Positions 4,738-33,940 of a stretch of DNA of 53,602 nt are shown here, one piece after another (within the stretch, counting starts at the first letter, position 1; each line of letters opens with the position of its first letter). Source of the stretch: an uncultured Candidatus Saccharibacteria bacterium. Its GTDB lineage: Bacteria > Patescibacteriota > Saccharimonadia > Saccharimonadales > UBA10212. The translations under genes were made by a program, and so were the position numbers. The stretch is from the NCBI GenBank assembly GCA_964448095.1, contig CAYUUT010000006.1, positions 1 through 53,602 on the forward strand, in the 5' to 3' direction. Below the pieces are notes generated by a model, which did not search any database, was not told where the DNA came from, and was given only the letters and a program-made list of their open reading frames with translations.

Positions 4738-4828
4738 AAGCATTAGTATAATAATATAATCTTGTAGCGATTATAGCCAAATTTACCTTTGCGTTGACCG
4801 GCCATTTTGCTAAACTACAAACAGCTAT

Positions 4829-5836
4829 ATGAGGGAAACACTAAGAAAGCACCTAACAAGGGCGCTAGCAGCGGTGGCAGTTTTTGCTATTGCGTTGGGG
4901 ATAATTCCCCAGGCGATGGCGGCTACGGCAACCCCTAATAATGCTACCCAGTCCGGCAATAACGGTTTACAAATCTCCCCCACCCGGACCGACCTTGCGG
5001 TTAATCCTGGTGAATCTAGCACTTTCCAGATTAGCCTCAAAAACATCAGTAGTATCGCCCTAACCGCCAAAGCGTCCTTAAACGATTTTGAATCCGACGA
5101 TCAGACCGGCATACCCAAGCTTATAATTGACCCCAGCCAACACTCACCACGTTCCATAAAACCATTCTTGAATGGTTTTGGTGATGTACCACTGCAATCC
5201 GGCGAAACCAAAACTGTACAGTTAGAGGTTAATGTTCCCGCTAACGCCGCGCCCGGCGGTTATTATGGAGCCTTGCGCTATTCAGCCATACCGGTCACCG
5301 CCAGCCAGAATGTCGGCCCCAACCAGATTTCCCTGACCGCCAGCGTGGCATCTTTAGTGTTGCTGGAAATAAACGGCCAGGTCAACGAACAGCTTAATTT
5401 TGATTCAATGAGCGCCTTACGCCACGGTACAACGCAAGCGATTTTCTTTGGCAAAGGACCAGACCAGATAGCTATTAGGCTTACTAATAAAGGTAACGGT
5501 TTCTCCCAGCCCATTGGCCACGTGGTCATTAACAAGGGTGGCAAGTCGGTCTACAACTACGAGTTTAACAGCACGACCTCCGGCCTGCACAGCACCATCC
5601 TGCCGGACTCCTCCAGGACCTTCACCAATTCAATTAAGAACGTCAACGGCTTTGGCCAATACACCGTAGTCGCCAGCATCGCCTATAAGCAGGGTGACGA
5701 AGCTTTGACCTTAAGCCAAAAGTTCTGGGTAATTCCAAAGGGTATTGAGTACGTCCTACTGATACTGGTCATATTAATTGCAGCTGGTATCGGTCTGTGG
5801 CAACTGGCCACCCGAAGAGCCAAAACCAAACGCTAA
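4829..5836 (+). CDS. DUF916-like (WxL-interacting / chaperone-like Ig-fold) membrane-anchored protein
   Basis: Signal peptide; GLQISPTR...VNPGE and VPANAAPGGYYGAL resemble DUF916; second Ig-like domain; C-terminal TM with basic tail. Confidence 0.65.
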   Translation: MRETLRKHLTRALAAVAVFAIALGIIPQAMAATATPNNATQSGNNGLQISPTRTDLAVNPGESSTFQISLKNISSIALTAKASLNDFESDDQTGIPKLIIDPSQHSPRSIKPFLNGFGDVPLQSGETKTVQLEVNVPANAAPGGYYGALRYSAIPVTASQNVGPNQISLTASVASLVLLEINGQVNEQLNFDSMSALRHGTTQAIFFGKGPDQIAIRLTNKGNGFSQPIGHVVINKGGKSVYNYEFNSTTSGLHSTILPDSSRTFTNSIKNVNGFGQYTVVASIAYKQGDEALTLSQKFWVIPKGIEYVLLILVILIAAGIGLWQLATRRAKTKR

Positions 5837-5840
5837 CAAT

Positions 5841-6908
5841 TTAGAATGAACCTATCGCCAGATAGGTCATGGTAGTGCTGTAGACGCCTTCCGGCTGAGA
5901 ACTGTCGACGTTGGCAATATAACTAACCGTAAACAAGCTAAAATCAGTACTCAGCGGCGAGTCCGCCACTAGATCGCCGGCTTGGAATTTGTAACGGTTC
6001 GCTAAGTTATAGCCATTATCAACCACGCCACTGCCGGCACCAAACGGATTAGCGCCAACCGGCGGCGAGCCATTGGCTACCAGGTTGAGGCCGAACTGGC
6101 CGATACCTTTAGCGCTGGACTGCTGGCTAGCCATAGCCGGGATAGTATTATTACCTGAGGTTAAGGTGTTTCCTAGAACAAAAATATTGTAGCCGGTGAA
6201 GTAATTGGTCCCCACCGAAAACTGGGTAGTAGTAAAGCCTGTCACCTGGGGCGTTAGGACTCCCAGATCTTTAATATCATGTACTTGATTACTGCAGTCC
6301 ACCGCAACCGTGGCGCCGACGCAAAGCACCAGGCGCGGCGGCACATATGCGGTGGCGCCCAGGCCCACAGACAGGTCGAATACCACGCCACCAGTATCAA
6401 TTGGCGGCCCGGTAGCATCAGTGCTGGCATAGGTGCTAAGCCGGACATACATCGACTGGTTAACCGCCGAGGGATTAACGATGTTACTGAAACTATATTC
6501 TGACGGATCGGGTGTCACTGGCGTTGCCGGTCTGGTAAGTATCAAATCATTGGCCGTAGTTAACGGGCTGATAGTAAAGCCGGTGGTTCCGCTTTGGTTA
6601 TCCAAGACTGCCCCGAGTACCGACAGGCCGGTTGGCGCCGTACAAGGTGTACCTACCAGTGGACCATCGGAGCAGTATCTAAACTGGATTGAACCAACAT
6701 CCGCGGCAGAGGCTAATACAAAGTCAAAAACATGGCTGGTTACCACGCTGGGCTGAGAAGAGCCAATGGTTATAGACCGGTCCGGGAGTTCGGCGGCCGA
6801 TGCCTGGGGCCAAGCGGCAGGCAAAGTTAAACATGCCACCAGCAAAATAACTAGAGTGAACAGGCGTAATTTATAAGTCGCCCGCCATCGAAGCAAGGGC
6901 TGAGCCAT
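5841..6908 (-). CDS. Secreted WxL-like/pilin-like surface protein, paralog 1
   Basis: Signal peptide; RSITIGSS, FRYCSDGPLVGTPC, DLGVL, FGLNL; ends GVYSTTMTYLAIGSF. These motifs are shared with the neighbouring genes. Confidence 0.6.
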   Translation of the reverse strand: MAQPLLRWRATYKLRLFTLVILLVACLTLPAAWPQASAAELPDRSITIGSSQPSVVTSHVFDFVLASAADVGSIQFRYCSDGPLVGTPCTAPTGLSVLGAVLDNQSGTTGFTISPLTTANDLILTRPATPVTPDPSEYSFSNIVNPSAVNQSMYVRLSTYASTDATGPPIDTGGVVFDLSVGLGATAYVPPRLVLCVGATVAVDCSNQVHDIKDLGVLTPQVTGFTTTQFSVGTNYFTGYNIFVLGNTLTSGNNTIPAMASQQSSAKGIGQFGLNLVANGSPPVGANPFGAGSGVVDNGYNLANRYKFQAGDLVADSPLSTDFSLFTVSYIANVDSSQPEGVYSTTMTYLAIGSF

Positions 6909-6920
6909 GGCTTTTGGCCT

Positions 6921-8372
6921 TTAGAAGGTTGAGGTTGCTATATAAGTGGAGGTCACGGTGTAGGTACCGGTTGGAGTGGTAATGCCGGGGGTGGCCGCGA
7001 ACTTCAGAACAATCGTTTCATTGTCTACCGGTCCGGTTGACTTAGCCAGCAGCTCGGGGGTGGCAGAACCACTGTGATCCCAGGCGAAACCGTTAGTATC
7101 TCCGTAGTGTGTGGCGTCAATTCCGATGTAGCCAGACTGGGCTACCAGCAGGTTGAGTCCAGAAGACATGTCGCAGGTGTAGGCCGTGGTGGTCGTGCCA
7201 TTACAGTTAGTACCGGCCACAACAACGCCGAAGCTTTCCTGGCCAGCAGTAAAGGCCGCCTGGGTAGTGCTGTCATTGAAGCACTGGTCAGTATGAGAGG
7301 CTCCGGAACACGAAGCGCCCGGAACTTTTAGCTGGCCACTGCCTGTATCCTGCTGAGCAAAGTAAGTTATAGCCACACCATTGCTGGCGTTGGTCTGGAC
7401 CATAGCCGCGCCATTGCAGGCGTTGCCAAGCCCCGGCGTCCCCGGCGCAGTTGGTACTGGCGAAACGGAAACTGCGCTACTGTCTAGGACCCCTAGGTCA
7501 ACCGTGGTTCCGCAGTTCCCAGCAAAGGTTGAAGCGCAGTTGTTGGCAATAGTGGTGGTTGAGTCATCAACATCGGTAGTGCCGACGCAGAATTGCAGAA
7601 CTTCCTGTACCCGAGCGGTGGTACTCAGCTCGTTAGCGGTACTCAGGGCGATACCACCGTCATCCAGGTGCGTACCCGGTACGGTATCAGTGTAAGCCGC
7701 GGCTGTTGTATCGTTGGCATAGGTTAAAATGCGGGCATAAAATGTTCCGGTTGCTGAGGGGTTGGTTACACCGTCGCCGCCAGTTGCGTTGGTACCAAGG
7801 CTAAAAGTAACACTTTGGTTGGCGGTTATAGCATTGCCAGTAGCATTGGTCAATATCAAGGTATTAGATGTACTGGTGCCGTTAATCGCATAGCTGTGGG
7901 TGACGGGTGAACCATTAATTTGCTGGGCGGCCACAGTAAGGGTAGCTTTATTGATATCAAAGCCACTGGGGCCGGTGCAGGCTGTTCCTATCAGAGGTCC
8001 GCTGGCGCTATCGCAAAACTGTATAACTATACCCTTAAGGTTAGCGCTGGCTGTGGTTTCATCAAAGCTCACAAAGTAGGTCACATCAGTGGCGCTCACC
8101 ACTGAACTGCCAATGGTTATTTTACGCTGAGTCACCTGGGCGGCAGCGATTTGGGTCGGCTGGAGGACAGCGGTCAATATGCTAGGCGCCAAGAACAGGA
8201 AAATAACCAGTAAAGCTACTAGTCTCCGTTCAAGTGTAGAGGATTTAAACATCTTGGTGGCTGTTTTTTTTGTTTTTATACCTAACGTTAGGAGAATAGC
8301 ACAGGCTAAGAAATAACCCAAGTACTTTTCCACAGGGTTGCTAAAGAGATGGTTAAGGAGTTGGTTCATCAT
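6921..8372 (-). CDS. Secreted WxL-like/pilin-like surface protein, paralog 2
   Basis: RKITIGSS, FCDSASGPLIGTAC, ARVQEVLQFCVG; ends GTYTVTSTYIATSTF; long hydrophobic N-terminus. Confidence 0.6.
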   Translation of the reverse strand: MMNQLLNHLFSNPVEKYLGYFLACAILLTLGIKTKKTATKMFKSSTLERRLVALLVIFLFLAPSILTAVLQPTQIAAAQVTQRKITIGSSVVSATDVTYFVSFDETTASANLKGIVIQFCDSASGPLIGTACTGPSGFDINKATLTVAAQQINGSPVTHSYAINGTSTSNTLILTNATGNAITANQSVTFSLGTNATGGDGVTNPSATGTFYARILTYANDTTAAAYTDTVPGTHLDDGGIALSTANELSTTARVQEVLQFCVGTTDVDDSTTTIANNCASTFAGNCGTTVDLGVLDSSAVSVSPVPTAPGTPGLGNACNGAAMVQTNASNGVAITYFAQQDTGSGQLKVPGASCSGASHTDQCFNDSTTQAAFTAGQESFGVVVAGTNCNGTTTTAYTCDMSSGLNLLVAQSGYIGIDATHYGDTNGFAWDHSGSATPELLAKSTGPVDNETIVLKFAATPGITTPTGTYTVTSTYIATSTF

Positions 8373-9709
8373 TAGAAGGTTGGCGTGGCTATGTAATCCG
8401 AGGTTACGTTATAAGTTCCGGTAGGGGTGGTGATTCCGGGAGTGGCAGAAAATTTAAGTATCAGCGTTTCGTCTTCTACCGGGCCGCTGGAGCTGGCTAT
8501 CTGCGTAGGGCTGCTAATGCCGGTGTCGTTCCAGGCAAAGCCGTTAGTAACACCGTAGGCAGTAGTTGTATTGCCGATATAACCAGATACAGCTTTCAGT
8601 TGGTTAGTGCCAGAGGACATGCTACAACTGTAAGACACCGTGGTGGTACCGTTACAGTTAGTGCCCGCGACGTCCACCCCGAAGTCCTCTTGGCCGGCCG
8701 TAAAGGTCGCTTGAGTTGAGCTATCATTGAAACAGTTGTCGGTAGTAGATGAACCGCTGCAAGTCGCTCCGGGGATCTTGAGTTTGCCGCTACCAGTGTC
8801 CTGCTCGGCAAAGTAGGTTACAGCGACCCCGCCGCCAGCGTTAGTACGGACCATGGCCGCGCCATTACAGCCATTGCCGTAACCGGGCGCCCCCGGAGTA
8901 GTCGCTACCGGCGAGGTTGATATTACGCTACCGTCCAAGACACCCAAGTCCACCGACGTCCCGCAGTTGCCGGCAAAAGTGCCGCCGCAGTCGTTAGCGA
9001 TGGTGGTGGTAGCATCATCGACACTAGTAGTACCGACACAAAATTGCAGGACTTCCTGTACCCGGGCGCTTATGGTCAGCTCACTGGTGGTGCTTAGAGC
9101 TATGCCGCCGGAGTCGATAACGTTACTGCCGGGGTTGGCTACGCTGCCGGTGCTGTCATAAGTGGTCGAGTCGGCAGTGGTGCTAAAGGTGAATATGCGG
9201 GCGTAGAACGAACCGACCGCACTCGGATTAGTGGCGGTGAAGCTAAAGGTCACGGCGTGCGTTGCATCAGTACTGCCGCCGGTACCACCAGAATCTTGAA
9301 TAACTAGAGCTTTGCCGCTACCAATGTTCGTGTTAGGAGCTACAGCCGTAAAGGAAGCGGACCCAAATCCACTGGTCTGAGTAACAGTTATGCTGCCGCT
9401 GGTCTGAATACCGCTAACCGGGTGGTTGGCCGATGAACAGACCGTGCCTAACAGCGGGCCGCCGCCAGCGCTATTACAAAAATCAACCACTATCGCCTTT
9501 ATAGAGGTGGTGCTGCCCGGAATAAAGCTCACCGAATAGGTGTTAGCCGTGCTCACTTTAGAGCTGCCAATGGTAATTTTACGCTGCGTCACGGTAGCCG
9601 CGGAGGCTGGCTGGCTGGCTAAAAAGAAGGGCAGAAAATAAGTGCTCAGAAAGAGCATTATCAACAGCAGGCTAAGAAAGGCTCGTTTATTGGCGACTAT
9701 GCCCGGCAT
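8372..9709 (-). CDS. Secreted WxL-like/pilin-like surface protein, paralog 3
   Basis: C-terminal half closely similar to paralog 2 (ARVQEVLQFCVGTT...); ends GTYNVTSDYIATPTF; GAGGAG SD upstream. Confidence 0.6.
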   Translation of the reverse strand: MPGIVANKRAFLSLLLIMLFLSTYFLPFFLASQPASAATVTQRKITIGSSKVSTANTYSVSFIPGSTTSIKAIVVDFCNSAGGGPLLGTVCSSANHPVSGIQTSGSITVTQTSGFGSASFTAVAPNTNIGSGKALVIQDSGGTGGSTDATHAVTFSFTATNPSAVGSFYARIFTFSTTADSTTYDSTGSVANPGSNVIDSGGIALSTTSELTISARVQEVLQFCVGTTSVDDATTTIANDCGGTFAGNCGTSVDLGVLDGSVISTSPVATTPGAPGYGNGCNGAAMVRTNAGGGVAVTYFAEQDTGSGKLKIPGATCSGSSTTDNCFNDSSTQATFTAGQEDFGVDVAGTNCNGTTTVSYSCSMSSGTNQLKAVSGYIGNTTTAYGVTNGFAWNDTGISSPTQIASSSGPVEDETLILKFSATPGITTPTGTYNVTSDYIATPTF

Positions 9710-9823
9710 CTAACTCCTCTACCCCTACCTCAAAGTTTGGGTTTTTTGTTAATGCTTAATTATTAACAAACTTTACCGCTGGTGACAAGTGTAAATTGGC
9801 TTATCCACAAGCCGTAAAAACCC

Positions 9824-10579
9824 TTAGTACGTAGGTACTACTACAATATCATGATTCATCGTATAAAGTCCGGCCCGTGTAAGCGGCGCCTGGTTGGCAA
9901 TATAAGAGATGGTGTAGGTCGTCTGGCCAATTGATTGATTGCCGGAAGTCGCCGGCGAATTGGCGATAACATTACCAGTCACGTATTTAAATAAATTAGC
10001 CGTGTTGTAGCCGGTGGCGGCCTGGCCGTTGGCAAAAGAGTTATCTGGTTGATTTACCGGATCAGCGCCCAAATCACAGCCGGCGCCGCAGAAATTGCTG
10101 TTTTTGACCAGGTTGATGCCAAATTGCTCTACGCCGGTTGTGGAGGCCGTGGGTGCACCGAGGGCGCTGAATTGGTGGCCTTCTTCATTAGTCAGCGGCT
10201 GGCTGGCAGTAATCACGCTGTAAGCTTGTGACAGGTAGGTTCGCACTGTGAAGCTAGCGCTACCCGAACCGGTTGTCGTGGTGCTAAGCGTGCCCAGGTC
10301 AACGGTTGAATTATTGATAGTCTCCGACAAAAAGACCTGGTTTTGGCTTAAAAAACCGACATTGGAGCGATAGTTGGAGCTATAAAAGTCTCCCGAGCCA
10401 GTGCCGCCAAGACTGGCCTGTCCTTGGTAGTTGGCCGAGCTCTGGCTTAACGCCCCGCCGGTGCCAAAAAAAACTTCGTTGGTACTGTAGCCGCTGGAAG
10501 AATATTGAGCATAGACAAAAGGCGTGCTAAAAAACAGACACGCGCAGATTAACGCTAACAGGAGTTTTAGGCGCGTCAT
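9824..10579 (-). CDS. Secreted WxL-like/pilin-like surface protein, short paralog 4
   Basis: Signal peptide; VDLGTL, FGINL; ends GLYTMNHDIVVVPTY; lacks the N-terminal domain of paralogs 1-3. Confidence 0.55.
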   Translation of the reverse strand: MTRLKLLLALICACLFFSTPFVYAQYSSSGYSTNEVFFGTGGALSQSSANYQGQASLGGTGSGDFYSSNYRSNVGFLSQNQVFLSETINNSTVDLGTLSTTTTGSGSASFTVRTYLSQAYSVITASQPLTNEEGHQFSALGAPTASTTGVEQFGINLVKNSNFCGAGCDLGADPVNQPDNSFANGQAATGYNTANLFKYVTGNVIANSPATSGNQSIGQTTYTISYIANQAPLTRAGLYTMNHDIVVVPTY

Positions 10580-10630
10580 TTACCCATGGATTATAGCATA
10601 AGGGGTTTAAAACATTGTCTGGTATGAATT

Positions 10631-11326
10631 TTAGTTGAGTTTGAAGCTCTGCAGGATCTCCTGGAAAACCTGGCCAAAGTAACTTGAACCGTCGTTCACA
10701 AACGCGAAGTTGAGTGTCTGGTTTTGGCCGTGTGAATTTTGCAGTGTGATGTCGTAGCTGCCACCGACTAAGGCGGCAGCGGCTTTTTCGCCGCTGCCGC
10801 GCACTAAACAGATATAATTAGCGCCTTGGAACTGCATGCTCAGAGTAACTGGCGGCAGGCTGCCTGGGCTTTGTTTAACACTATCGCCACAACGAGCGGA
10901 TATAGCAGTCGGCTGCATCCGGTTATTGCTGACCGTTAACGGCACTACGTAGTTGACCGCTTGGCTTTCAAGCGACTGGTTAAAAATTATATCTAACTCG
11001 TACACGATTAAGTTATTTTCCTGAGTGAAAAAAACATATTTGCTGAGTGACGACTCTTCAGGGGAAAATTGCCAGTTGGCGGTAGACTTAAAGCTAAAGA
11101 CACTATTTTGGACTAAGTGTTCCGGCGATCCGTTATAAAAGGTCTTGGTTAAGGGCTGAATGACGACTGCCTTGGCAGCCTCGGTAGTGGATTTTTGCCA
11201 TAAGTAGACCGCGCCGCCAGAGATTAGTACGACAATTATCATCAGACCAACCAGCAGTAGCCGGCGGCGGCGATAGCGGTTTTTTATGGATTTGTGTTGG
11301 TCCAGATTGTAATAAACATTGGGCAT
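10631..11326 (-). CDS. Hypothetical protein with N-terminal membrane anchor
   Basis: Basic stretch RYRRRR, then a TM helix and a soluble domain. The ORF track starts at 11395; the ATG at 11326 is more plausible. Confidence 0.6.
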   Translation of the reverse strand: MPNVYYNLDQHKSIKNRYRRRRLLLVGLMIIVVLISGGAVYLWQKSTTEAAKAVVIQPLTKTFYNGSPEHLVQNSVFSFKSTANWQFSPEESSLSKYVFFTQENNLIVYELDIIFNQSLESQAVNYVVPLTVSNNRMQPTAISARCGDSVKQSPGSLPPVTLSMQFQGANYICLVRGSGEKAAAALVGGSYDITLQNSHGQNQTLNFAFVNDGSSYFGQVFQEILQSFKLN

Positions 11327-11381
11327 GGGTTTACGCTTTATAACCTCTAGCCTATAGTATAAGCGATAGCGATATAAAACC

Positions 11382-12449
11382 ATGGCAAGCCCCAATAATA
11401 AAAATCAGCCGAAAGCGGAACCGGCGGCCAAGCCGCCGGTTCCGCAGGAGCCTAAAGAACCCGGTTCTTTGGAAGGCGATTCGCTTGAAGCCGAGTCTGC
11501 CACACAAGACAACAGCCCCGGTAACCTCGCCGACCCGGGCAAAGATGCCAGCGGCCAATCAGATCGACCGGGGGGCCCGCCGGCTAATGAGCCAAAAGCA
11601 AAAAGATCTTTGCTGCATAAATTAACCGAGGCAAAATTCCTATACATTTGGATCTTTTTGATTGTCATAGCCGGCATCGGCGTCCTTATATTTTTTACCC
11701 TTAAATGGAGTAAGGCCGCCCCGCAGGCCATCAAGACTACCACTGCTTCGTTAAGTAATGCCCAACTGGCGTCCTTAGCGCAAAATACCACGGTAGTGGG
11801 CGACGCCAAGCAAACCCTTAGCGTTGAAAGTAACGCTATATTCCAAGGGCAAGTGCTGCTTAAACAAGGCCTGGACGTCGCTGGCACGCTGAAAGTTGGC
11901 GGTGGTTTGTCCCTGCCCTCCATAACCGTTGGCGGTAATGGCTCCTTTGGTCAGTTAGAAGTTAATGACACCCTTTCGGTGGCTGGCAATAGCGTCGTCC
12001 AAGGTCAGTTGAATGTCCAGAAGGGCTTAACGGTTGCCGGTACCGCCAGTTTCGGCAGCATTTCGGCCGCCCAACTAAGCGTGACTAATCTGCAGCTCAA
12101 TAGCGATTTATTGCTTAGCCGGCACCTGGTAACCAGCGGCGGCAATCCCAGCAAAACCAACGGCACAGCCTTAGGCGATGGCGGTACGGCTTCAGTTGGT
12201 GGCAGCGACACTGCCGGCACGGTTAACGTCAATACCGGCAGCGGCCCAATTGCTGTCGGCTGCTTTATCAACATTACATTTACCCAAAAGTACTCCGGTA
12301 CGCCGCACATTATTCTCAGCCCGTCTAACAGTGCGGCCGGCAATTTAAATTACTACACTGACCGCTCATCCACCGGCTTTAGTGTCTGCACCGATAGCGC
12401 GCCTAGCGCTTCTACTACCTATCTGTTCGATTATTTTGTAGCTAACTAA
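11382..12449 (+). CDS. Membrane-anchored fibre/adhesin-like protein (GxLxVxG repeats plus tail-fibre-like C-terminal domain)
   Basis: Pro/acidic disordered N-terminus, one TM, then repeats GLDVAGTLKVGGGL / LEVNDTLSVAG / LNVQKGLTVAG, then C-terminal ITFTQKYSGTPHIILS...STGFSV. Confidence 0.55.
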   Translation: MASPNNKNQPKAEPAAKPPVPQEPKEPGSLEGDSLEAESATQDNSPGNLADPGKDASGQSDRPGGPPANEPKAKRSLLHKLTEAKFLYIWIFLIVIAGIGVLIFFTLKWSKAAPQAIKTTTASLSNAQLASLAQNTTVVGDAKQTLSVESNAIFQGQVLLKQGLDVAGTLKVGGGLSLPSITVGGNGSFGQLEVNDTLSVAGNSVVQGQLNVQKGLTVAGTASFGSISAAQLSVTNLQLNSDLLLSRHLVTSGGNPSKTNGTALGDGGTASVGGSDTAGTVNVNTGSGPIAVGCFINITFTQKYSGTPHIILSPSNSAAGNLNYYTDRSSTGFSVCTDSAPSASTTYLFDYFVAN

Positions 12450-12452
12450 AGG

Positions 12453-14887
<2,435 letters not shown>

Positions 14888-14891
<4 letters not shown>

Positions 14892-16432
14892 TTTTTAGCC
14901 TTCTGCTTGGTTTTGGCAAGTTCAGCGGCTAACTGAACAGCTGGTATTTGGGCGGCGGGTACCTGTAGAGTTGGCGCTTCGGGAGCAACTGGCGGCGGCG
15001 GCATTACCTGGGCCTTAAATTGGGCTATCACCTGGTCGTAATCTTTATCTTGCTTAACCAGTTTGGCGGCCTGGTTAGCGGTTTCCTGCATTAGGGCCAG
15101 GTTTATTGGCTTGGTGGGGTCTTCATTTAACAATATGCCAATCAGTAACTGTTGGGCCATCAAGCTATAAATCTGGCCCGGTTTTTGGGTAAAGATTTCC
15201 TGCATGTGCCGGCCACGCTCCAGGTCTTGTTTACTCTGAATTGTCAACTCCGAACCGAAGCGCGAAAATTCCTCGGCTACCCGGAAAGCCGCCAAGGCTT
15301 TCAGGCTTTTTGAACCCTGGTCTTTTTGTCGGCTATTTTGGCCTACGCCACCAACACGTGTAACACTTAAGCCCGGGTTGACAGCCGGACGCATGCCGCT
15401 ACGGAAAATTCCCATGTCCAGAATCCATTGCCCATCGGTAATAGACATGATGTTGGTGGGCAGATAAGCCGTGATGTCACCACTGTCGGCCAACACCATT
15501 GGAATGGCCGTCAGGCAACGATGGTTGCTGGCCAGACGCCCGGCGCGTTCCAGCAAAGCTGAATGGGCGTGGAACATATCGCCGGGGTAAGAATCACGAC
15601 CCGGGCTAACTTTGGAAAGTAGCGAGATTTCCCGGTGAGCGTGGGCATGGGCGGTTAAATCGTCATAAATAATCACTGCGTCCTGACCGAGTTTTTGCCA
15701 CAGGTATTCGGCTAGTGCGCAGCCTACATAAGGCGCCAGATAGCTCATCACCAACGATTCGAAGATGGTCGATACTACTACGATTGCCTTACCCATAGCG
15801 TTGTTGTCATTCAAGCGCGTAAGTAGCGTGTCGACGTCACTGCGGCGCTTGGCAATAAGCACGTAAACTACGATTTGATTGGTGTCGCGTTGATTAATAG
15901 CTATCTGGGTAGCCAGCGTTGATTTGCCTGACTTACTGTCGCCGAGCATAGCCATTCTCTGCCCGCGGACAATCGGGAATAGCGTATCAATCATGGTCAC
16001 GCCGGTCTCCATCTGGTCTTCCAGCAACTGGCGTTCGTGGATTGCCGGCGCCCGGTTAAAAACCGGCCAAGTAGTATCCGAGGCGATAGCGCCTTTGCCG
16101 TCTAGCGGCTCGCCGGTTACAGAGACCACGCGGCCAATAAAATCCTTGCCGACTTTTGCTACTAACTGCGAGCCGGTCAGCACTAAAGTCATGCCAATAC
16201 GTAAATTGGATACGCCCATGTGCAGGACAATCACCCGGTCGACCAATATTTCATGCACGTAGCCGCGGGTACCGTCTTCAAAGACTACAACGGCTTCTAG
16301 GGTCACTGGTTGCAGGCCTCGCACCTCAACTAAAAAACTGTCAACCGCGATTATTTCGCCGACCGGCTGGCCGCTGTCGACTAAGCGTTGGAAGTGTTGT
16401 CCGACATTACTGTCCACCGGTAGCTCCAGCAA
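14888..16432 (-). CDS. atpA: F1-type ATPase alpha subunit, divergent
   Basis: [12 protein letters not shown], Walker [40 protein letters not shown], arginine finger SVTRVGG; start may be GTG at 16417. Confidence 0.92.
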
Positions 16433-16892
16433 TAAGTTCGATTAGATAGGGCTGCTCTTTCTGCAAACGCGGTCGCAGGCTCATATCAAACCATTTGTTG
16501 GGCGTGCGCAGCATAAAACCAGCCGCCACATTGGGTTGGAGCCCAACTTGCAGCAACAGTGTCGGGTGGATATTTTGGCGCATCCAGCTAAGTATTTGCT
16601 CCAGGACTTTGGCTGGCGGTTCGCTACTAAAGCTTATGCGCAGCTGCGGCGCTGTTTTGAGCAGTCCTTCCAGCCGGGCTTTTAATTGCTGGCGCTGCGC
16701 TTCCTCCAGTAAATTAACCTGGTTGTCGCTGACCAACTGATTAAGCAAATTGCTGGGTCGCGGGGCTGGCAGAGCCGTACCGGCTGGCCGGCTTTTAGCG
16801 CCGGCGAAAAAATCATCTAGGCTATTTAGCTCACGCAGCAAACGCGACACGTCATAGCGGCTCACTAGGGTGATGGGGATTTTAAGCTCCAC
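16407..16892 (-). CDS. atpH: F1 delta/OSCP-like subunit
   Basis: C-terminal [22 protein letters not shown] matches the delta pattern; GTG start at 16892 chosen (ORF track starts at 16910). Confidence 0.7.
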
Positions 16893-17508
16893 GCTGTATA
16901 TCCTCCACAATCGCCTGCTTATTAGCTTCCAGCTCGGCCAGGATATATTCCAGCTGGTCTGATAAATCTATCTGGTTGCCGATGGCGTGCAAAATGTAAT
17001 GGTTGATGATGTTGGCCATCTGACCTTCAAACTGTTTTAAGATGTGTTTTTTCTGTTCTTCCGATTGGGTTTTTAGCTGTTGCTCAAGATATTGCCGCTG
17101 TTGCTCAATAGTGTCGATAGTTTTCTCAATTGAGCCCAAGGCCAGCTGCTTAGCGTCAGCAATTGATTGCTCGTACTTCTTAAATTCTTCTTGCAAGGTG
17201 CGCGTAATCTCAGCCCGCATGTAGTCGTTCAGCTGGGAGGTGGTTTGGCGCAGATCCTGCTGCAGAAACATAGCGTTTTCGCCGATGATTTTCTCGAAGT
17301 GCAGGCGTCCGCGGTTACGCAGCTCTTCGCGGAACTCGTCATTAAAAATATGCTCAACGTCTTCTTTGGCGGAGTCTACCAAAGCTTCCTGAGGACCATT
17401 GGCCTTTTTGCCGGACGGCGCACCATTAAGCCGCAGGGCCAGCCAAACAAAGGCCGCTGTGGCTGACAGCAGCGATCCTACGACCAAGACTAGCCCACCA
17501 GTGTTCAT
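16882..17508 (-). CDS. Subunit b-like stator protein (N-terminal TM plus coiled coil)
   Basis: Single N-terminal TM followed by a long helical coiled-coil-like region; position upstream of delta. Confidence 0.6.
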   Translation of the reverse strand: MNTGGLVLVVGSLLSATAAFVWLALRLNGAPSGKKANGPQEALVDSAKEDVEHIFNDEFREELRNRGRLHFEKIIGENAMFLQQDLRQTTSQLNDYMRAEITRTLQEEFKKYEQSIADAKQLALGSIEKTIDTIEQQRQYLEQQLKTQSEEQKKHILKQFEGQMANIINHYILHAIGNQIDLSDQLEYILAELEANKQAIVEDIQRGA

Positions 17509-17524
17509 TATTGCTTTTTTATCC

Positions 17525-18346
17525 TTATAACCTTAGTAGTAAGTATACAGCCAGAAGGCCGGCAATGAAAATCAATACAGCGATAATTATAACCTCGGCC
17601 AAGCTACGCAAAATCGAATGTTTGGATAAGGGGTTACGGCCAATAGCTATCATGCCGCTGCGGATGCCTACCCACAAAAGACAGGCGGCAATAATCGCTG
17701 TCATCAGAAAGACCGCCAGCGCTGAATAAATCCGCAGGGCAGTAACGGTTTTACCGGCAATCGAATCGCCCAGAGTGCGCAGCGCCGAAGGCACGGCCAC
17801 GCTATCGCGGCTCAACGGGTTACGGCCCGGCTCGATATCAATCGTTATCCGCCCAATAGCTGAGCCACCGGCACTGGTAATGACTCCGCTTTTGCCGTCA
17901 AAGCCGGTCAAGGCACGGCCTAAAACAGCATTTTCCAGCGGCGAAGCTTTAGCGGCAATGCCGTTGATGTTAGACATCGATATATAGTCGCCCACTTTGA
18001 CGGCGCCTTCCTCGGAGCTAACCAAAACCGGGTAACTGCCGCTGTTGGCCACAAAGACCTGCTGGCCGTTGTTCTGAATAGCCACGGCCGCCAACGAAGG
18101 ATCTACCACCACGCCGTACATCTGAGTGGAGTCCGAAGCTGGCGCGGCAACTACTGTTTGGGGACTTTTCTTGTCAATCGCCACCACCCAGCCAATACCA
18201 ACCGACCCCTGTGAGTTAAAGCTCTGAACAAATGAGTCAGCTAAGGCGGTTTTAGCCAGCGCGGCCAGCGCTATAGTCATAACCGCGGCCACGATAACGG
18301 CAGCTCGCAGCCAGCGTTGGGTTGCCACGGCTCTGGGCGATGTCAT
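17525..18346 (-). CDS. Membrane protein: signal peptide, beta domain, C-terminal subunit-c-like hairpin (GRNP)
   Basis: Two C-terminal TM helices joined by IAIGRNPLSK, resembling the c-subunit RQP/RNP loop; central domain VKVGDYISMSNINGIAAKA...VLGRAL. Confidence 0.55.
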   Translation of the reverse strand: MTSPRAVATQRWLRAAVIVAAVMTIALAALAKTALADSFVQSFNSQGSVGIGWVVAIDKKSPQTVVAAPASDSTQMYGVVVDPSLAAVAIQNNGQQVFVANSGSYPVLVSSEEGAVKVGDYISMSNINGIAAKASPLENAVLGRALTGFDGKSGVITSAGGSAIGRITIDIEPGRNPLSRDSVAVPSALRTLGDSIAGKTVTALRIYSALAVFLMTAIIAACLLWVGIRSGMIAIGRNPLSKHSILRSLAEVIIIAVLIFIAGLLAVYLLLRL

Positions 18347-18389: not shown

Positions 18390-19532
18390 TTAATCACTGG
18401 TAACTTTGATGATTAGTCCGAGGACGAATTTTAGGTCCGCTGGCGTGGTTTCGCGCCCAAAACTAAAGCGCAAGGTAGAGCGAGCATCTTCTTTAGTCAA
18501 TCCGATAGCCGATAACACGTGCGAAGGTTCAGCGCTGCTGGCGCTACAAGCGCTACCTACCGCTGCCATCACACCAGCTTCGTCGAGCTGCATCATCAAA
18601 CGTTCGTTATCAATACCCGGGAATGTCACGCTAAGGATGTGGGGCGTGTGGTGCTTAGGCGAACCGTTGACCTTAGCCGAAGGCACGGCCTCGGCCAAGT
18701 CAGCTACAAACCCGACGCGAAGTTTTTCTAGTCTTTCGGACTCGGCTTTCCTGCCGGCTTGGGCTAATTCCAGGGCTTTGGCCAAACCAGCGTCGGCCGC
18801 CACGTTCTCAGTTCCGCTGCGGATGCCGAATTCCTGACCGCCGCCCAAGATCAGCGGCTCCAGATTTATGCCGGCTTTGATAAACAGCGCGCCGCTTTGC
18901 TTGGGCCCGTAAATCTTCCCGCCGTTAACAGTCATTAAATCTACGCCCAGCCGCGAAACATGTAGATCCAGATAGAGCGGCGCTTGGGCGGCATCGGTAT
19001 GCAGGTATAGCGGTAAGTCATTGCCCTTGGATTTGCGCAAAATACTTAACTTGTTAAGTATTTTTGCGACTTCGCGCAGCGGCTGGACTGTACCTAACTC
19101 GTTATTGACCAACATAATGCTTAGCAAAACTGTCTTGTCACCGACCATTTTTTCTAATTTAGCCAGGTCAATGATGCCCTGCTGGTTAACTGGAATTAGG
19201 CGATGGGCAAAACAGCCTGCCGGCGCCAGTACCGAATCGTGCTCAATAGCGCTGGTCAAAACTTCGGCATCAGGAAATTTTCGCAGCACTCCTTGAATAG
19301 CTAAGTTATTAGCTTCAGTAGCGCCGGCTGTGAAGATAATTTCGGCTGGACGGCTGCCCAGGATTTTTGCGATGCCGGAACGAGCCTGCTCCAAAGACTG
19401 GCGGGCCGCCCGGCCCGCCAGATAGGTCGCCGACGGGTTATAAAAAGCTTCGCTAAAAAACGGCTCCATAGCCGCTAAAACCCGTGAGTCTACCGGTGTA
19501 GCCGCGGCGTAGTCCAGATAGATTCGCTTCAA
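18390..19532 (-). CDS. iscS: Cysteine desulfurase (IscS/NifS)
   Basis: YLDYAATTP, HTDAAQA, GGKIYGPK (PLP lysine), RSGTEN, GSACSA. Confidence 0.93.
   Translation of the reverse strand: MKRIYLDYAAATPVDSRVLAAMEPFFSEAFYNPSATYLAGRAARQSLEQARSGIAKILGSRPAEIIFTAGATEANNLAIQGVLRKFPDAEVLTSAIEHDSVLAPAGCFAHRLIPVNQQGIIDLAKLEKMVGDKTVLLSIMLVNNELGTVQPLREVAKILNKLSILRKSKGNDLPLYLHTDAAQAPLYLDLHVSRLGVDLMTVNGGKIYGPKQSGALFIKAGINLEPLILGGGQEFGIRSGTENVAADAGLAKALELAQAGRKAESERLEKLRVGFVADLAEAVPSAKVNGSPKHHTPHILSVTFPGIDNERLMMQLDEAGVMAAVGSACSASSAEPSHVLSAIGLTKEDARSTLRFSFGRETTPADLKFVLGLIIKVTSD
19043..19060. repeat. 18-bp palindrome, copy 2 (inside iscS)
   Basis: tacttaacttgttaagta flanked by aaaa/tttt. Confidence 0.8.
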
Positions 19533-22315: not shown

Positions 22316-22392
22316 TGGTGGGATTGGAGGGGCTCGAACCCCCGACCTCGTGAATGTGAATCACGCGCTCTAGCCAGCTGAGCTACAACCCC
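22316..22392 (-). tRNA. tRNA-Val(CAC)
   Basis: GGGGTTGTAGCTCAGCTGGCTAGAGCG-CGTGATTCACATTCACG-AGGTCGGGGGTTCGAGCCCCTCCAATCCCACCA; folds as a cloverleaf with encoded CCA. Confidence 0.96.
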
Positions 22393-28074: not shown

Positions 28075-28713
28075 ATGGCCGATTTTCCACCCTTTATGAA
28101 TGCCTACGGCAACGCAACGAAAATTTTAGATAAAATTAAAGAAGCTCAAACTCCAGATCGATTTTCGCAAGATTTCTTATCAACAGTTCTCGGTTTTTCC
28201 GGTGGCGGATCAAAAGCATTCATACCATTAGCAAAAAGAATTGGTTTGCTTTCATCTGATGGAGCGCCCACGGAATTATATAGACAATTTCGTAATCCGT
28301 CACAGTCTCAACAGGCAATGGCCCGAGCAATCAAAAAAGGATATCCTCAGCTCTATAGCCGTAATGAATTCGCTCATGCCTTAGAGAAAAAAGACCTTGA
28401 AGGCTTAGTAATGGAGGCTACAGGACTTAATAAAGGCTCCGCTACTTTAGGGGCAATTGTTAATACTTTCGAGGCTCTTAAGGCATTTGCTAACTTTGAA
28501 TTAGGAGAACCTGTTAGCGATATTGATAAGGCTGGCGATGAATCAGAAAAGCCACAAGATTCTCCTGTGCAAATTCCGTTGAAATTACCCGGCACAAGCA
28601 ATACCGGAGATCCTAAATTTTCATACAATATTTACCTCAATCTTCCGGACACTACTGACCCAGCAGTATTCAATGCTATATTCAAGTCTATCAGAGACAA
28701 CTTGCTACAATGA
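28075..28713 (+). CDS. DUF5343-like protein
   Basis: KILDKIKEAQTPDRFSQDFL...IPLAKRIGLLSSDGAPTELY matches my recollection of DUF5343; C-terminal YNIYLNLP; AGGAGG SD; AT-richer than flanks. Confidence 0.7.
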   Translation: MADFPPFMNAYGNATKILDKIKEAQTPDRFSQDFLSTVLGFSGGGSKAFIPLAKRIGLLSSDGAPTELYRQFRNPSQSQQAMARAIKKGYPQLYSRNEFAHALEKKDLEGLVMEATGLNKGSATLGAIVNTFEALKAFANFELGEPVSDIDKAGDESEKPQDSPVQIPLKLPGTSNTGDPKFSYNIYLNLPDTTDPAVFNAIFKSIRDNLLQ

Positions 28714-29291
28714 GTTCAACTGATAATCTAAAGCTATTCCATCTAAATAAAGCATTGCTAGAAGCTGATTTATCAACGGTTGAGAAGATTTATGATGTAA
28801 AGATTTTGCCCTCTAGGACAGTAATTGAGCGTAAGGACGAAACATTCTACCCCCAGTTCCCCGCTGCAATCAGGCAAAAAGCTAAAGAAATGGCCGCTCA
28901 CTACGAAGCGTTTTATTTACTTGAAAATTCAATAAGGGATCTAGTGAGCGAAGCATTGCTTTCTGCAGAGGGAGAAGACTGGTGGGACAAGACTGTGCCT
29001 AAAGAAGTCCAAGATAACGCCACAGTAAACGCAAAAAGAGAACGAGATGCAGGTGTTTCGCCGCGCTCCACAGAGCCTATTGACTATACGAATTTTGGTG
29101 AATTAAGCACAATCATACAAGCAAATTGGGAAAACTTTAGCGACCTATTTAATAGCAAGAGTGGACTAGTGAGCGTGCTAGCCAGATTGAACCTACTGAG
29201 AGGCCCGATTGCACATTGCGCAGCTCTAACGGAGGATGAAGTACTACGATTGCAACTTTCGTTACGAGACTGGTTCAGGCTTATGGAATAA
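28710..29291 (+). CDS. Swt1-like HEPN-domain protein
   Basis: EMAAHYEAFYLLENSIRDLV, DWW, YTNFGEL, HEPN R-x4-H motif RGPIAH; ATGA overlap with the upstream gene. Confidence 0.75.
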   Translation: MSSTDNLKLFHLNKALLEADLSTVEKIYDVKILPSRTVIERKDETFYPQFPAAIRQKAKEMAAHYEAFYLLENSIRDLVSEALLSAEGEDWWDKTVPKEVQDNATVNAKRERDAGVSPRSTEPIDYTNFGELSTIIQANWENFSDLFNSKSGLVSVLARLNLLRGPIAHCAALTEDEVLRLQLSLRDWFRLME

Positions 29292-29309: not shown

Positions 29310-29324
29310 GGGGATTTAAGCCCC
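29310..29324 (-). repeat. Cassette repeat R1
   Basis: aattttgtttttGGGGATTTAAGCCCCgg; supplies the TAA of 29316-29996. Confidence 0.85.
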
Positions 29325-29996
29325 GGCCTGTTTGGTTTTTAGCTGGCTGTAGTAGTGGTCGAGTGAAAGCAGCGCCACAGCGTTGAAGAAGTGCCAGACG
29401 GCGTGGCCGTTTATATAGTGAGAGCTGCTTGGGTCGCACCAAATCTTTTTGTAATCCAACCACCAGAATAAATAGCCAATCGCAAAAGCGGCAAAAGTCA
29501 GCCAAAAATATTTTAGGTTTAATTTGTCTTTGGCGGCAGCTTTTAGCTCCAGGTAAACCGCGATAATTAACAATATCGCGAAAAGCGGAATACCGATGTT
29601 AAAACTGCCAATTGTCCGAATTGTTGCCGTCAGCGCCAGCGGAATGCCAGCGCCAAAAATGAAAAACCCCAAGCTCTGATTCTTAGAAAGTTTGCGGTTT
29701 CGCAAGCCGGCGACAATAAGCAGCGAGGCCAGCAAGTACATTGACCCAAGATCGGCCAGCTGCCCCACAAATGTAAAACTAGCGTAATAGAAAAACGATG
29801 CCAAGCCCAAAATTATGGCGATTACGCCAAGATGTTTAGAATACGTGCGGTGTTTCTTGGCTAAAATATAGATTCCAGCCAAAGATATTAACAAAGAGGA
29901 GACGGCATTAGCGGGCTGGACAATCCAGCCGTTTAAATTGGATTCACAGTAGCGAATCGTCGGCTGCATCAAACCAAAAAACGGCGTCCGGTTCAT
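29316..29996 (-). CDS. Ceramidase-like (CREST superfamily) membrane protein
   Basis: YCESN, PANAVSS, ADLGSM, HAVWH; about 7 TM; the first Zn-ligand position reads SFFYY rather than SxxxH. Confidence 0.7.
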   Translation of the reverse strand: MNRTPFFGLMQPTIRYCESNLNGWIVQPANAVSSLLISLAGIYILAKKHRTYSKHLGVIAIILGLASFFYYASFTFVGQLADLGSMYLLASLLIVAGLRNRKLSKNQSLGFFIFGAGIPLALTATIRTIGSFNIGIPLFAILLIIAVYLELKAAAKDKLNLKYFWLTFAAFAIGYLFWWLDYKKIWCDPSSSHYINGHAVWHFFNAVALLSLDHYYSQLKTKQAGA

Positions 29997-30022
29997 AGTC
30001 CAATCATAACAAATTTTGTTTT

Positions 30023-30038
30023 GGGGAATTTAAGCCCC
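30023..30038 (-). repeat. Cassette repeat R2
   Basis: aaattttgttttGGGGAATTTAAGCCCCgg; supplies the TAA of 30030-30923. Confidence 0.85.
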
Positions 30039-30923
30039 GGCATTTGGTTTCATAACAAAGACTACGGCAGTACCGTTTATGGCTGCGACGTAGTCGGCTG
30101 GATAGTTGAGAGCTTTGGGTGAAGTTAGCTCATTCGTAACTTCCAGGAAGCTGTGGCTTTCAACATCAAAGCCCAGTCCTTCAAAAAATTTCTTGGCATC
30201 ATCTTCGTCTTTAAACAAGTTATTTTTGACGTCAACACCGGTTATTTGGGTTATTCTTTTCCGCCTTAACTCCATCACTTCATCTTCTTGGTATACCACC
30301 CGGGGCATCGATATGTCGGCCGTAATCCAGACTCCGCCATATTTGCGTAATAGCTCGCGCACGTTCTTTACGTATTGTTCCTTTTCCTCAAACGACAGAT
30401 ACCTAAGCAGGCCTTCGTTAACGACGGCGATAGGTTCACTGGTTTTAAAATGTCTGGCAGCGCGCTGTAAGTCTGTCAGCTCCAGCGCGCTGCCGTCTTC
30501 TATATGAAGATGCTCCGGCGACCGCAAAGCGCCTTTATTTTCCAGCGCTTTTATAATTTTTCTTTTATCGGCCATCATCAACGGCAAGTCTACTTCGACG
30601 TACTCTATTGTGCCGTCCGCGCTCATTTCCATGCCCCTAGTTGAAAGACCGGCGGCGATTTCCACAACTTGTTTGATGCCGGTTTGCTTAATCAGCTTGT
30701 TAATAAGTTTATGCCGGGCCTCAAAATGAGGTGCCATCTTGGTATCTTTCATTTCTTCCAAGAGGCCAGCTTTACTACCGGCCTGCCGAATGGTTTCCAG
30801 CTCTATAAACATTTCTTTGGAATAAGGGATATCTGAAAAAGTCCGCCCATAAGCCGTCAGCCAACCTGTGGGGATAATTCCATCATAAGCAGTTTTACCG
30901 GTTGGTGACTTAGCCTCGCTCAT
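30030..30923 (-). CDS. Class I SAM-dependent methyltransferase (LCM-like)
   Basis: QVVEIAAGLSTRG, YVEVDLP, VVNEGLLRYL. Confidence 0.85.
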   Translation of the reverse strand: MSEAKSPTGKTAYDGIIPTGWLTAYGRTFSDIPYSKEMFIELETIRQAGSKAGLLEEMKDTKMAPHFEARHKLINKLIKQTGIKQVVEIAAGLSTRGMEMSADGTIEYVEVDLPLMMADKRKIIKALENKGALRSPEHLHIEDGSALELTDLQRAARHFKTSEPIAVVNEGLLRYLSFEEKEQYVKNVRELLRKYGGVWITADISMPRVVYQEDEVMELRRKRITQITGVDVKNNLFKDEDDAKKFFEGLGFDVESHSFLEVTNELTSPKALNYPADYVAAINGTAVVFVMKPNAGA

Positions 30924-30964
30924 AGTCCATCAATAATACCAAACCAGGAAAAAATTTTGGGTTT

Positions 30965-30980
30965 GGGGGATTTAAGCCCC
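30965..30980 (-). repeat. Cassette repeat R3
   Basis: aaattttgggtttGGGGGATTTAAGCCCCggagcg. Confidence 0.85.
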
Positions 30981-30988
30981 GGAGCGGG

Positions 30989-31402
30989 CTACTTTACGAC
31001 TATGGTTCCGCGCATCGACGGATGGATACTGCAGTGATACTGGAATGAACCGGTTTTATTGAATGTAAAGCTGTAGGTTGAGCCAGGCTGTATGTCGCCG
31101 CTGGAGGGGCCGCCAACATTACTTAAATCATCAATTACTGTATGCGCCACGCTATCATTATTTGTCCAAGTGACTGTGGCGCCTTTGGCAACAGATATTT
31201 GGGAAGGCGTGAACATCATATTCTTAATATCTATGCTGCCAGAGGCCGCTGATTGGTTAGAACTTGATGCTGAACTATTGTTATTCGTACTATTTTGAGT
31301 GGAAGTGTTTGAGCTATTATTCGACTTGTTGTGATCATAAATAGCCCAGCCTCCTATCGCCAGAACCGCAACTACGATAATTGCTACCATTACTTTATTC
31401 AT
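30989..31402 (-). CDS. Cupredoxin (plastocyanin/amicyanin-like) with N-terminal anchor
   Basis: FTPSQISVAKGATVTWTNND, HTV, YHCSIHPSM (type-1 copper ligands H, C, H, M). Confidence 0.9.
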   Translation of the reverse strand: MNKVMVAIIVVAVLAIGGWAIYDHNKSNNSSNTSTQNSTNNNSSASSSNQSAASGSIDIKNMMFTPSQISVAKGATVTWTNNDSVAHTVIDDLSNVGGPSSGDIQPGSTYSFTFNKTGSFQYHCSIHPSMRGTIVVK

Positions 31403-31471
31403 TAAACTCTCCTCTTTACAGCTCTATTATAGGCCTTTATAAATTTTTGCGTGCCGAGAAGTTTATTTCTT

Positions 31472-31487
31472 GGGGGATTTAAGCCCC
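31472..31487 (-). repeat. Cassette repeat R4
   Basis: tttcttGGGGGATTTAAGCCCCggg. Confidence 0.85.
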
Positions 31488-31507
31488 GGGCTTTATGCTT
31501 ACAATAA

Positions 31508-31960: not shown

Positions 31961-32028
31961 ATGCGCCTCCTTTATCATGATTCTCTACCCCAGTAAGTAT
32001 ATTTGCAAGCATGAGCATTTTTGTTTTT

Positions 32029-32043
32029 GGGGGATTTAAGCCC
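32029..32043 (-). repeat. Cassette repeat R5
   Basis: tttttgtttttGGGGGATTTAAGCCCtc. Confidence 0.85.
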
Positions 32044-33884: not shown

Positions 33885-33903
33885 TAAGAGGGCTTTTGTT
33901 TTT

Positions 33904-33917: not shown

Positions 33918-33940
33918 TTGAGTGGGTCGTTTATAAAGTT

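Follow-up and report, generated by a model that had tools for sequence, protein, structure and literature searches.

Mycoplasmas carry F1-like ATPases (Types 2 and 3), and one or more of them perform mechanical work in place of ion coupling (PMC3369863, PMC8406192, PMC11864180). These systems, which include the gliding motor of Mycoplasma mobile, are encoded in dedicated clusters with divergent, paralog-like alpha, beta, gamma and epsilon genes and no recognisable Fo subunits a and c, and they are found in small-genome, host-dependent bacteria. Another type of second, divergent F-type operon present in some bacteria is that of the N-ATPases (alternate F1Fo, gene order atpDCQRBEFAG), which keep subunits a and c with their ion-binding residues. 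An operon that resembles the mycoplasma clusters in its divergent F1 genes, in its lack of recognisable a and c and in its occurrence in small-genome, host-dependent bacteria is located in the contig CAYUUT010000006.1 of an uncultured Candidatus Saccharibacteria bacterium, whose DNA originates from a rhizosphere metagenome; the 53,602 nt stretch that was analysed is referred to as the window. The first gene of this operon (positions 17525–18346, minus strand) encodes a 273 amino acid (aa) protein, termed here the target protein, which consists of a probable signal peptide, a putative extracellular beta domain and a C-terminal two-helix hairpin that resembles F-type subunit c in shape. With moderate confidence, the target is proposed to be a membrane subunit that is c-like, uncoupled from ions and probably assembled into a ring; it would belong to a repurposed F-type ATPase that is specific to Saccharibacteria. 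This ATPase probably burns ATP for a task at the cell surface rather than making ATP, because proton-channel genes are absent and the c-like hairpin is without a proton-binding acid.

The target open reading frame (ORF) begins with ATG, and its product was modelled with AlphaFold2 from a 119-sequence alignment (mean pLDDT 92). The model displays a helix at residues 4–31, an all-beta region at residues 39–175, a short helix at residues 187–197 and two long helices at residues 203–237 and 239–272. The N-terminal hydrophobic helix (residues 1–36, positions 18239–18346, minus strand as are all parts of the gene) ends in a conserved A-x-A, with Ala36 nearly invariant and a family consensus of A.AD at this point. 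For this reason the helix is probably a cleaved signal peptide, and the all-beta domain that follows it (residues 37–175, positions 17822–18238) would be extracellular; a first-pass annotation of the window had also described this domain as secreted. A linker with the short helix (residues 176–202, positions 17741–17821) leads to hairpin helix 1, which runs from outside to inside (residues 203–237, positions 17636–17740) and has the conserved residues G227 and R229 at its cytoplasmic end. The cytoplasmic turn is G-R-N-P-L (residues 236–240, positions 17627–17641), which corresponds to the R-Q/N-P loop in subunit c, and helix 2 returns from inside to outside (residues 239–272, positions 17531–17632). 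The C terminus of the protein is WVGIRSGMIAIGRNPLSKHSILRSLAEVIIIAVLIFIAGLLAVYLLLRL, also given as GIRSGMIAIGRNPLSKHSILRSLAEVIIIAVLIFIAGLLAVYLLLRL, and had been read in the first-pass annotation as two membrane segments joined by GRNP, which is what the model and the alignments display. Basic residues cluster round the hairpin turn. Together with the signal peptide they point to the topology of subunit c, i.e., N terminus outside, loop inside and C terminus outside.

The target belongs to a large family, with at least 605 homologs at 90% clustering and 707 representatives at 50% clustering. The turn residues G236-R237-N238-P239-L240 are invariant across the family alignments A1 (the hairpin alignment, which was used for the locus search), A2 and A4 (the most diverse alignment). 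In the diverse alignment the best conserved stretch is the cytoplasmic tip, residues 227–251, where the mean top-residue frequency is 0.65, compared with 0.47 in the outer domain. The segment G-R-N-P-L-S is present twice in the target, as IGRNPLSKHS in the cytoplasmic turn (positions 17627–17641) and as PGRNPLSRDS on the outside (positions 17810–17830), where PGRNPLS (residues 173–179) extends into the linker. Residues P173, N176 and P177 are nearly invariant, and N-P is nearly invariant at both copies of the motif throughout the family. Database names for the family are all "hypothetical protein", and the library of papers that was searched contains no description of the target protein and no remark on the missing subunits a and c. 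No RNA runs that carry the target gene were found, and a scan for promoters and terminators at the gene showed nothing beyond chance.

The hairpin was also modelled alone (AlphaFold2, pLDDT 92), because a full-length query could blur the result for the hairpin. A comparison of this model with the PDB by Foldseek shows that all of the top 50 matches are F-type c subunits of bacterial, chloroplast or mitochondrial origin, with TM-scores of 0.7–0.89, a root mean square deviation (RMSD) of 1.2–2.0 Å over 67–70 residues and sequence identities of 11–24%. When the whole protein was the query, the hairpin again matched F-type c subunits. As in subunit c (AtpE, PF00137), there are two helices of about 35 residues, the N and C termini are placed outside and a short basic R-N-P turn is on the cytoplasmic side; the gene is directly upstream of a b-like gene, and subunit c is the only PDB family that the hairpin matches. 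The corresponding loop is ARNP in mitochondrial c subunits and ARQP in bacterial c, the E. coli sequence being the only one of these that was verified. The target differs from subunit c in that its hairpin comes after a signal peptide and an extracellular domain of 140 residues, and in that its gene is not accompanied by a subunit a gene. Its shape, topology, loop motif and gene position are like those of c, and a descent from atpE is plausible. AtpZ/AtpI or a similar small Fo-associated hairpin was also considered and was rejected, as no match to PF09527 or the like was obtained.

The hairpin lacks the ion-binding carboxylate. In AtpE of E. coli (sequence from NC_000913.3), this residue is Asp61, at +18 from the loop residue Pro43. 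With Pro239 as the reference in the target, the residue at +18 is Val257, and Glu251, at +12, is the only acidic residue that the hairpin contains. The first-pass annotation had noted both the Val and the single Glu and had described the hairpin as lacking the carboxylate; a residue census of 268 relatives of the target extends this to the family. In 265 of the 268 relatives, 34 residues follow the loop Pro, and none of the relatives (0/268, a frequency of 0.000) has Asp or Glu at +18. Moreover, Asp and Glu do not exceed 1.5% at any position from +13 to +32. The missing membrane-embedded carboxylate is a family-wide trait, beyond one sequence. Position +12 is Gln in 78%, Lys in 8% and Glu in 6% of the relatives. 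The Glu of the window protein is a minority variant located at the membrane boundary, and it therefore does not represent a displaced ion site.

Several other polar residues are conserved in the hairpin: Gln at +12, Tyr at +29 (98% of relatives; Tyr268 in the window protein) and Arg229. Their conservation is the point in favor of an unconventional ion rotor, in which H+ or Na+ would pass by way of a non-acidic site (e.g., Gln +12, Tyr268 or Arg229) and an unrecognised protein would substitute for subunit a. There is only a slim chance of this, however, as the polar residues are at membrane boundaries and not in mid-membrane, acidic residues are practically excluded from +13 to +32, and the module encodes no polytopic membrane protein. 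In addition, to our knowledge every characterised F/V/A-type rotor uses a carboxylate.

The outer domain has similarities of a different kind. It contains the motif VKVGDYISMSNINGIAAKASPLENAVLGRAL, from which the first-pass annotation had suggested a resemblance to modules of phage tail and cement proteins, and this suggestion agrees with profile and fold comparisons. At the family level, XM1_gp53_minor_capsid (PF23982) matches 93 of 119 members at E ≤ 1, with a best E of 1.1e-7, and Phage_cement and Phage_cement_2 match 27/119 and 20/119 members, respectively. The window protein alone reaches 12.1 bits against the phage cement Pfam model, where the gathering cutoff is 27, and a search of the beta domain against PDB sequences gave no match; only the family-level Pfam and the fold comparisons succeed. 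By Foldseek against the PDB, the beta domain matches the Pam3 capsid cement chain 8hdt_G with an E of 2.8e-6, and also 8pkh, 9ocb_K and 5wk1_K. The E-values for capsid chains of Pam3, BB1, Sf11 and FCWL1 are 2.8e-6 to 6e-4, TW1 is matched as well, and weaker matches are to lambda gpD and P21 SHP. Against the predicted viral structures of BFVD there are 41 matches at E ≤ 0.001. The best of these (E 4e-9 to 1e-7) are "preneck appendage" proteins and N-terminal modules of large fibre/tropism proteins; BFVD superpositions show an RMSD of 3.2–4.4 Å over about 150 columns. Phage cement, decoration and fibre N-terminal anchor modules (PF23982, PF22758, PF09956; Pam3, BB1, Sf11, TW1) have a fold like that of residues 37–175. 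These modules attach in oligomeric form to a symmetric lattice of protein, or fasten a fibre to such a lattice. In the target, by contrast, the module is cellular, is exported by a putative signal peptide and is fused to a membrane hairpin.

The target gene is the first of a tightly packed minus-strand cluster in which genes are separated by 16 nt or less or overlap. It is 16 nt upstream of a gene for a 208 aa protein (positions 16882–17508) that has one membrane helix at its N terminus and a long, charged helical stretch. This protein has no match among Pfam families or PDB sequences, and the term b-like refers to its position, composition and architecture. The later genes overlap each other. 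They encode a 167 aa delta/OSCP-like protein (positions 16407–16910; Pfam OSCP E 0.0033, NCBIfam delta E 0.0015), a divergent F1 alpha of 514 aa with a Pro-rich C-terminal tail (positions 14888–16432; PF00006, E 1e-65), an F1 gamma of 285 aa (positions 14034–14891; PF00231, E 8e-30), a divergent F1 beta of 442 aa (positions 12709–14037; PF00006, E 9e-64) and a truncated epsilon of 90 aa (positions 12453–12725; PF02823, E 5e-12, residues 13–89 of 90). The assignment of the delta-like protein, weak for the single sequence, is consistent with a search of its family profile against the PDB, where the top 15 matches are all OSCP/delta (E 0.003–0.07). The operon retains a central as well as a peripheral stalk, and what is left of epsilon is the half that binds the rotor, the beta-sandwich. 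The catalytic motifs are legible in alpha and beta and P-loops are present, e.g., GGAGVGKT together with a GER(I)REG motif in beta, and a catalytically active F1 is plausible from these motifs. The tail of alpha (positions 14888–15040) is about 50 residues long and Pro/Ala-rich with a Lys-rich end; most relatives are 475–480 aa in length and are without it. The 90 aa epsilon is without the C-terminal helical (inhibitory) domain, which is present in the 141 aa canonical epsilon of Southlakia epibionticum.

The F1 subunits are clear at the Pfam level, yet every product of the operon is below the NCBIfam equivalog cutoff. The scores are 388–407 bits for alpha (cutoffs 484–554), 426 for beta (463), 76 for gamma (194), 39 for epsilon (67) and 17.5 for delta (57.5). 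Identity to the E. coli proteins is 36% for alpha (AtpA) and 41% for beta (AtpD). A search with alpha returned close relatives only, and alpha proteins of this type are annotated at NCBI as "sodium-transporting two-sector ATPase" and not as F0F1 alpha. No subunit a or ordinary subunit c is encoded in the operon or within 10 kb of it. E. coli AtpB and AtpE, as well as a hidden Markov model (HMM) of subunit c, gave nothing at E ≤ 10 when compared with the ORFs of the window and of 85 related loci. Judged by the presence of eight subunits and by equivalog scores, the operon is not a canonical F1Fo operon, and the target is the sole candidate for a membrane partner of its F1.

The operon is also distinct from the mycoplasma and N-ATPase systems. 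Scores of the window proteins against the mycoplasma-specific NCBIfam models NF045863, NF045858, NF045936 and NF045934 are 320 bits against a cutoff of 600 (MMOB1660), 340 against 850, 246 against 520 (MSC_0619) and 385 against 570 (MSC_0618), i.e., all are below the cutoff, and the F1 proteins score closer to ordinary atpA and atpD than to these models. The order b-delta-alpha-gamma-beta-epsilon and a delta/OSCP-like subunit are retained in the window operon, unlike in the mycoplasma clusters, and we know of no c-shaped hairpin with an outer domain that has been described as a membrane partner for the latter. The difference from the N-ATPases is seen in the alt_F1F0 scores, with 324 bits for alpha (cutoff 750) and 402 for beta (cutoff 752).

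The association of the target with ATPase genes extends to other Saccharibacteria. A scan of one genome per GTDB species revealed a target relative in 220 genomes, and 80 loci, labelled Saccharibacteria, Saccharimonadales, Saccharimonadia or just "bacterium", were kept for inspection. ATPase genes follow the target in 80/80 of these loci, as far as the contig runs; a co-occurrence with divergent alpha and beta genes, which the first-pass annotation had named as a check of its reading, is found. The order b-like, delta-like, alpha, gamma, beta and epsilon is present after the target in 79/80 loci, and a cysteine desulfurase gene is upstream of it in approximately 78/80. The same gene order is found on three other contigs from other sources, and in the divergent member P0253 a b-like ORF is the next one on a short contig. 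The linkage is essentially complete, and it persists among relatives down to 26–50% identity. This bears on whether the likeness to subunit c is due to chance, i.e., whether the target is an unrelated secreted, membrane-anchored protein whose gene merely precedes ATPase genes. The lack of profile similarity between the target and c and the generally high synteny of these genomes would favor such a chance resemblance, which is nevertheless hardly credible given the persistence of the linkage at low identity, the invariant cytoplasmic loop and the fixed C-terminal length of 34 residues. Structural matches to c subunits only, and the 16-nt gap to the b-like gene with overlapping genes downstream, also speak against chance.

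The position of the operon in the chromosome provides further information. In S. epibionticum a canonical operon, atpI-a-c-b-delta-alpha-gamma-(hypothetical)-beta-epsilon, is located at SEML1_0349–0358; elsewhere, at SEML1_0657–0664, the genes AlaRS-MnmA-YdcF-cysteine desulfurase-2 hypotheticals-TatD-MetRS are uninterrupted, and no "two-sector" ATPase is present (PMC10633639). The window has the same backbone, with AlaRS (positions 868–2766), MnmA (positions 2797–3837), cysteine desulfurase (positions 18390–19532), TatD and MetRS. A 14.5-kb insert (positions 3856–18346) that is between MnmA and cysteine desulfurase consists of the ATPase operon and surface-protein genes. The backbone common to the window and Southlakia extends further to RsmA and a G5 protein. 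The window is without the genes on either side of the canonical Southlakia operon, and the ATPase operon is not at the chromosomal site of that canonical operon. The first-pass annotation had placed the target gene where atpE would be. This holds within the operon, where the gene is directly upstream of the b-like gene, but not for the chromosomal site. The different site and the strong divergence of all subunits favor a separate, paralog-like ATPase as in mycoplasmas (PMC3369863), although the operon may instead be a relocated and remodelled sole atp operon.

A related question is whether F1 of the operon works with subunits a and c that are encoded elsewhere, with the target being an accessory surface protein that is co-transcribed and has no role in the enzyme. 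This is unlikely. All seven operon products are below the NCBIfam cutoffs, with alpha and beta no closer to E. coli than the identities given above; the target is kept before the b-like gene in 79 of the 80 loci; and Southlakia has a, c and F1 together in one operon. In addition, the best conserved part of the target faces the cytoplasm, which is not expected for a mere surface protein.

On the other side of epsilon there is a convergent gene for a 355 aa protein (positions 11382–12449, plus strand), separated from epsilon by 3 nt. Its product has a disordered, Pro/Lys-rich N terminus, one membrane helix (approximately residues 81–99), a beta-helical part and a weak match to Bactofilin. A surface-protein cluster (positions 3856–10579) encodes secreted pilin-like paralogs and two anchored proteins and resembles the pam operon. 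Four secreted paralogs of 251–483 aa (positions 5841–6908, 6921–8372, 8372–9709 and 9824–10579) have a common C-terminal motif, ..G.Y..T..Y(I/L)A...F/Y. A signal peptide is combined with a C-terminal anchor in two further proteins, of which one is PKD-like (positions 3856–4743) and the other WxLIP/Fn3-like (positions 4829–5836), and the insert also encodes a 254 aa single-pass protein. In an independent study of the Pam pili of Ca. Mycosynbacter amalyticus, "ATP synthase subunit" genes and a tail-fibre-like gene are reported to flank the pam operon consistently in CPR genomes, including Saccharimonadia; these neighbours are read there as a coupling to ATP production, it is proposed that no dedicated envelope machine is needed, and the target protein is not described (bioRxiv 10.64898/2026.03.03.709456). 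The gene at positions 11382–12449 is probably the "tail fibre-like" neighbour of that preprint. The sizes, signal peptides and C-terminal anchors of the window proteins are compatible with Pam pilins, chaperones and anchor when compared by description. These neighbouring genes have no match among PDB sequences and are candidate orthologs of PamA/B/C/D/E/R/T. A census of 53 species loci that reach at least 3 kb past epsilon shows the tail-fibre-like gene in 46/53 and pilin-like genes in 45/53.

The proposed function of the operon can be outlined as follows. The target hairpins would assemble into an oligomer like a c-ring, and their invariant GRNPL tips would bind the foot of gamma/epsilon in the manner of the RQP loops of c. 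Hydrolysis of ATP by alpha3beta3 would turn, or at least strain, this ring against a stalk of the b-like and delta-like subunits. Since there is no path for protons, the energy would pass to the crown of extracellular domains, and likely recipients would be the membrane-anchored tail-fibre-like protein and Pam-type pilus components. The ring, its rotation and its output are suggested by the place of the gene in the operon, the topology of the hairpin, the conserved loop and the lack of a gene for subunit a. A reading of this kind, a ring rotated by F1 with an extracellular domain as a mechanical output, had been given in the first-pass annotation. It is borne out in part, i.e., for the c-like structure, the linkage to the ATPase and the absence of the carboxylate, and not for sequence homology to c. 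Neither of the two outcomes that the annotation had named as contrary to its reading was obtained: the hairpin does resemble subunit c in structure, and the gene is not mostly separate from ATPase genes.

A number of observations weigh against the c-like, ring-forming subunit. The Foldseek E-values for the hairpin are weak (0.1–2), which is expected for a short helical hairpin, but a two-helix hairpin is a simple fold and AlphaFold may be biased towards known hairpins. Scans with PF00137 gave no match, either with the full-length protein or with 38 hairpins (E ≤ 10), and no c subunit was among the PDB sequences that the hairpin profile matched by hmmsearch. A comparison of the hairpin with eight c subunits by hhalign resulted in a probability of 0.5%, with only the R-N-P loop aligned, in register; of the eight sequences, that of E. 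coli was verified. The packing motif GxGxGxG is absent from helix 1 of the target, where the family consensus is RIYAALAxFxxTAxIAxxxLWVGVRSG. Furthermore, in the absence of subunit a it is hard to see what braces the membrane helix of the b-like protein, and hence how torque would be resisted. One locus, L067 (DATBED010000060.1, Saccharimonadales, positions 9335–11773), has a target homolog with alpha as the next gene; the b-like and delta-like genes are both missing there. Finally, 7 of the 53 loci examined past epsilon run directly into MnmA-AlaRS with no adjacent pilin cluster, and cysteine desulfurase, TatD and MetRS are equally conserved neighbours of the target. Gene adjacency is thus weak evidence of a functional link, since these genomes are highly syntenic and housekeeping neighbours are as well conserved. 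In locus L067, a gene for a 2571 aa repetitive surface protein is upstream of the target homolog and replaces cysteine desulfurase.

Accordingly, the likeness to subunit c that had been suggested in the first-pass annotation is present in structure and not in sequence. Searches by profile and alignment detected no sequence similarity of the target to subunit c, and membership in subunit c is not assigned, because two defining features, GxGxGxG and the carboxylate at the Asp61 equivalent, are missing from the target family. Some of these observations would be explained by a static anchor, which is a possible alternative. With no rotating ring, the target would then hold an F1-like ATPase at the membrane and might also link it, through the outer domain, to the cell wall or the surface layer. 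The ATPase would work through conformational changes, or would use ATP to regulate or chaperone the assembly of surface structures, in a relation somewhat like that of FliH/FliI/FliJ to b-delta/alpha-beta/gamma. There is no subunit a to part rotor from stator, the b-like protein has diverged beyond recognition, L067 dispenses with the b-like and delta-like genes, and homology to c is not detected; all of these are compatible with a static anchor. Points against it are the retention of gamma and of the rotor-binding half of epsilon, and the presence of the b-like and delta-like stalk genes in 79/80 loci, as the keeping of both stalks is a requirement of a rotary mechanism. The superposition of the hairpin on c subunits only is a further point against it.

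A more specific form of the c-like, ion-uncoupled subunit is a rotary motor whose rotor ring bears a crown of domains similar to phage decoration proteins, which would turn or load the tail-fibre-like protein and/or the base of the Pam pilus for contact with the host. This specific form is doubtful.

Other features of the window are unrelated to the ATPase. A DUF5343 gene and a Swt1-like HEPN gene form a pair at positions 28075–29291, possibly a defence or toxin-antitoxin-like module, and this stretch has a G+C content of 0.43 compared with about 0.52. The region at positions 29316–36188, which is partly low in G+C, encodes proteins that are unusual for a saccharibacterium: a ceramidase-like protein, a leucine carboxyl methyltransferase-like protein, a cupredoxin (plastocyanin/azurin family), a fatty-acid desaturase, an EamA transporter and VKOR. 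A tmRNA gene is at positions 40008–40411 (minus strand), and tRNA genes are at positions 22319–22392 and 49278–49349 (both minus strand).

Surveys of Saccharibacteria count these alpha, beta and gamma genes as an "F-type ATPase", and such counts, together with cytochrome o oxidase, have been taken to mean proton-driven ATP synthesis or aerobic respiration (PMC12592800, PMC9530719, PMC11659515). The operon described here has no proton path. For the many soil, rhizosphere and groundwater lineages that carry it, this metabolic conclusion may not hold, or another operon may be its true basis. The new element is an F1-like ATPase, apparently uncoupled from ions, with an unprecedented membrane subunit that would display a domain outside the cell. 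If the proposal is correct, it would represent a second independent F1 motor that has been detached from ion coupling, after the F1-like ATPases of mycoplasmas. For the Pam pili, which have been proposed to need no envelope machine, a candidate for an energy-using partner is now at hand. If the rotary crown should exist, the operon would encode an F1-powered surface machine, the first rotary ATPase with an extracellular mechanical output.

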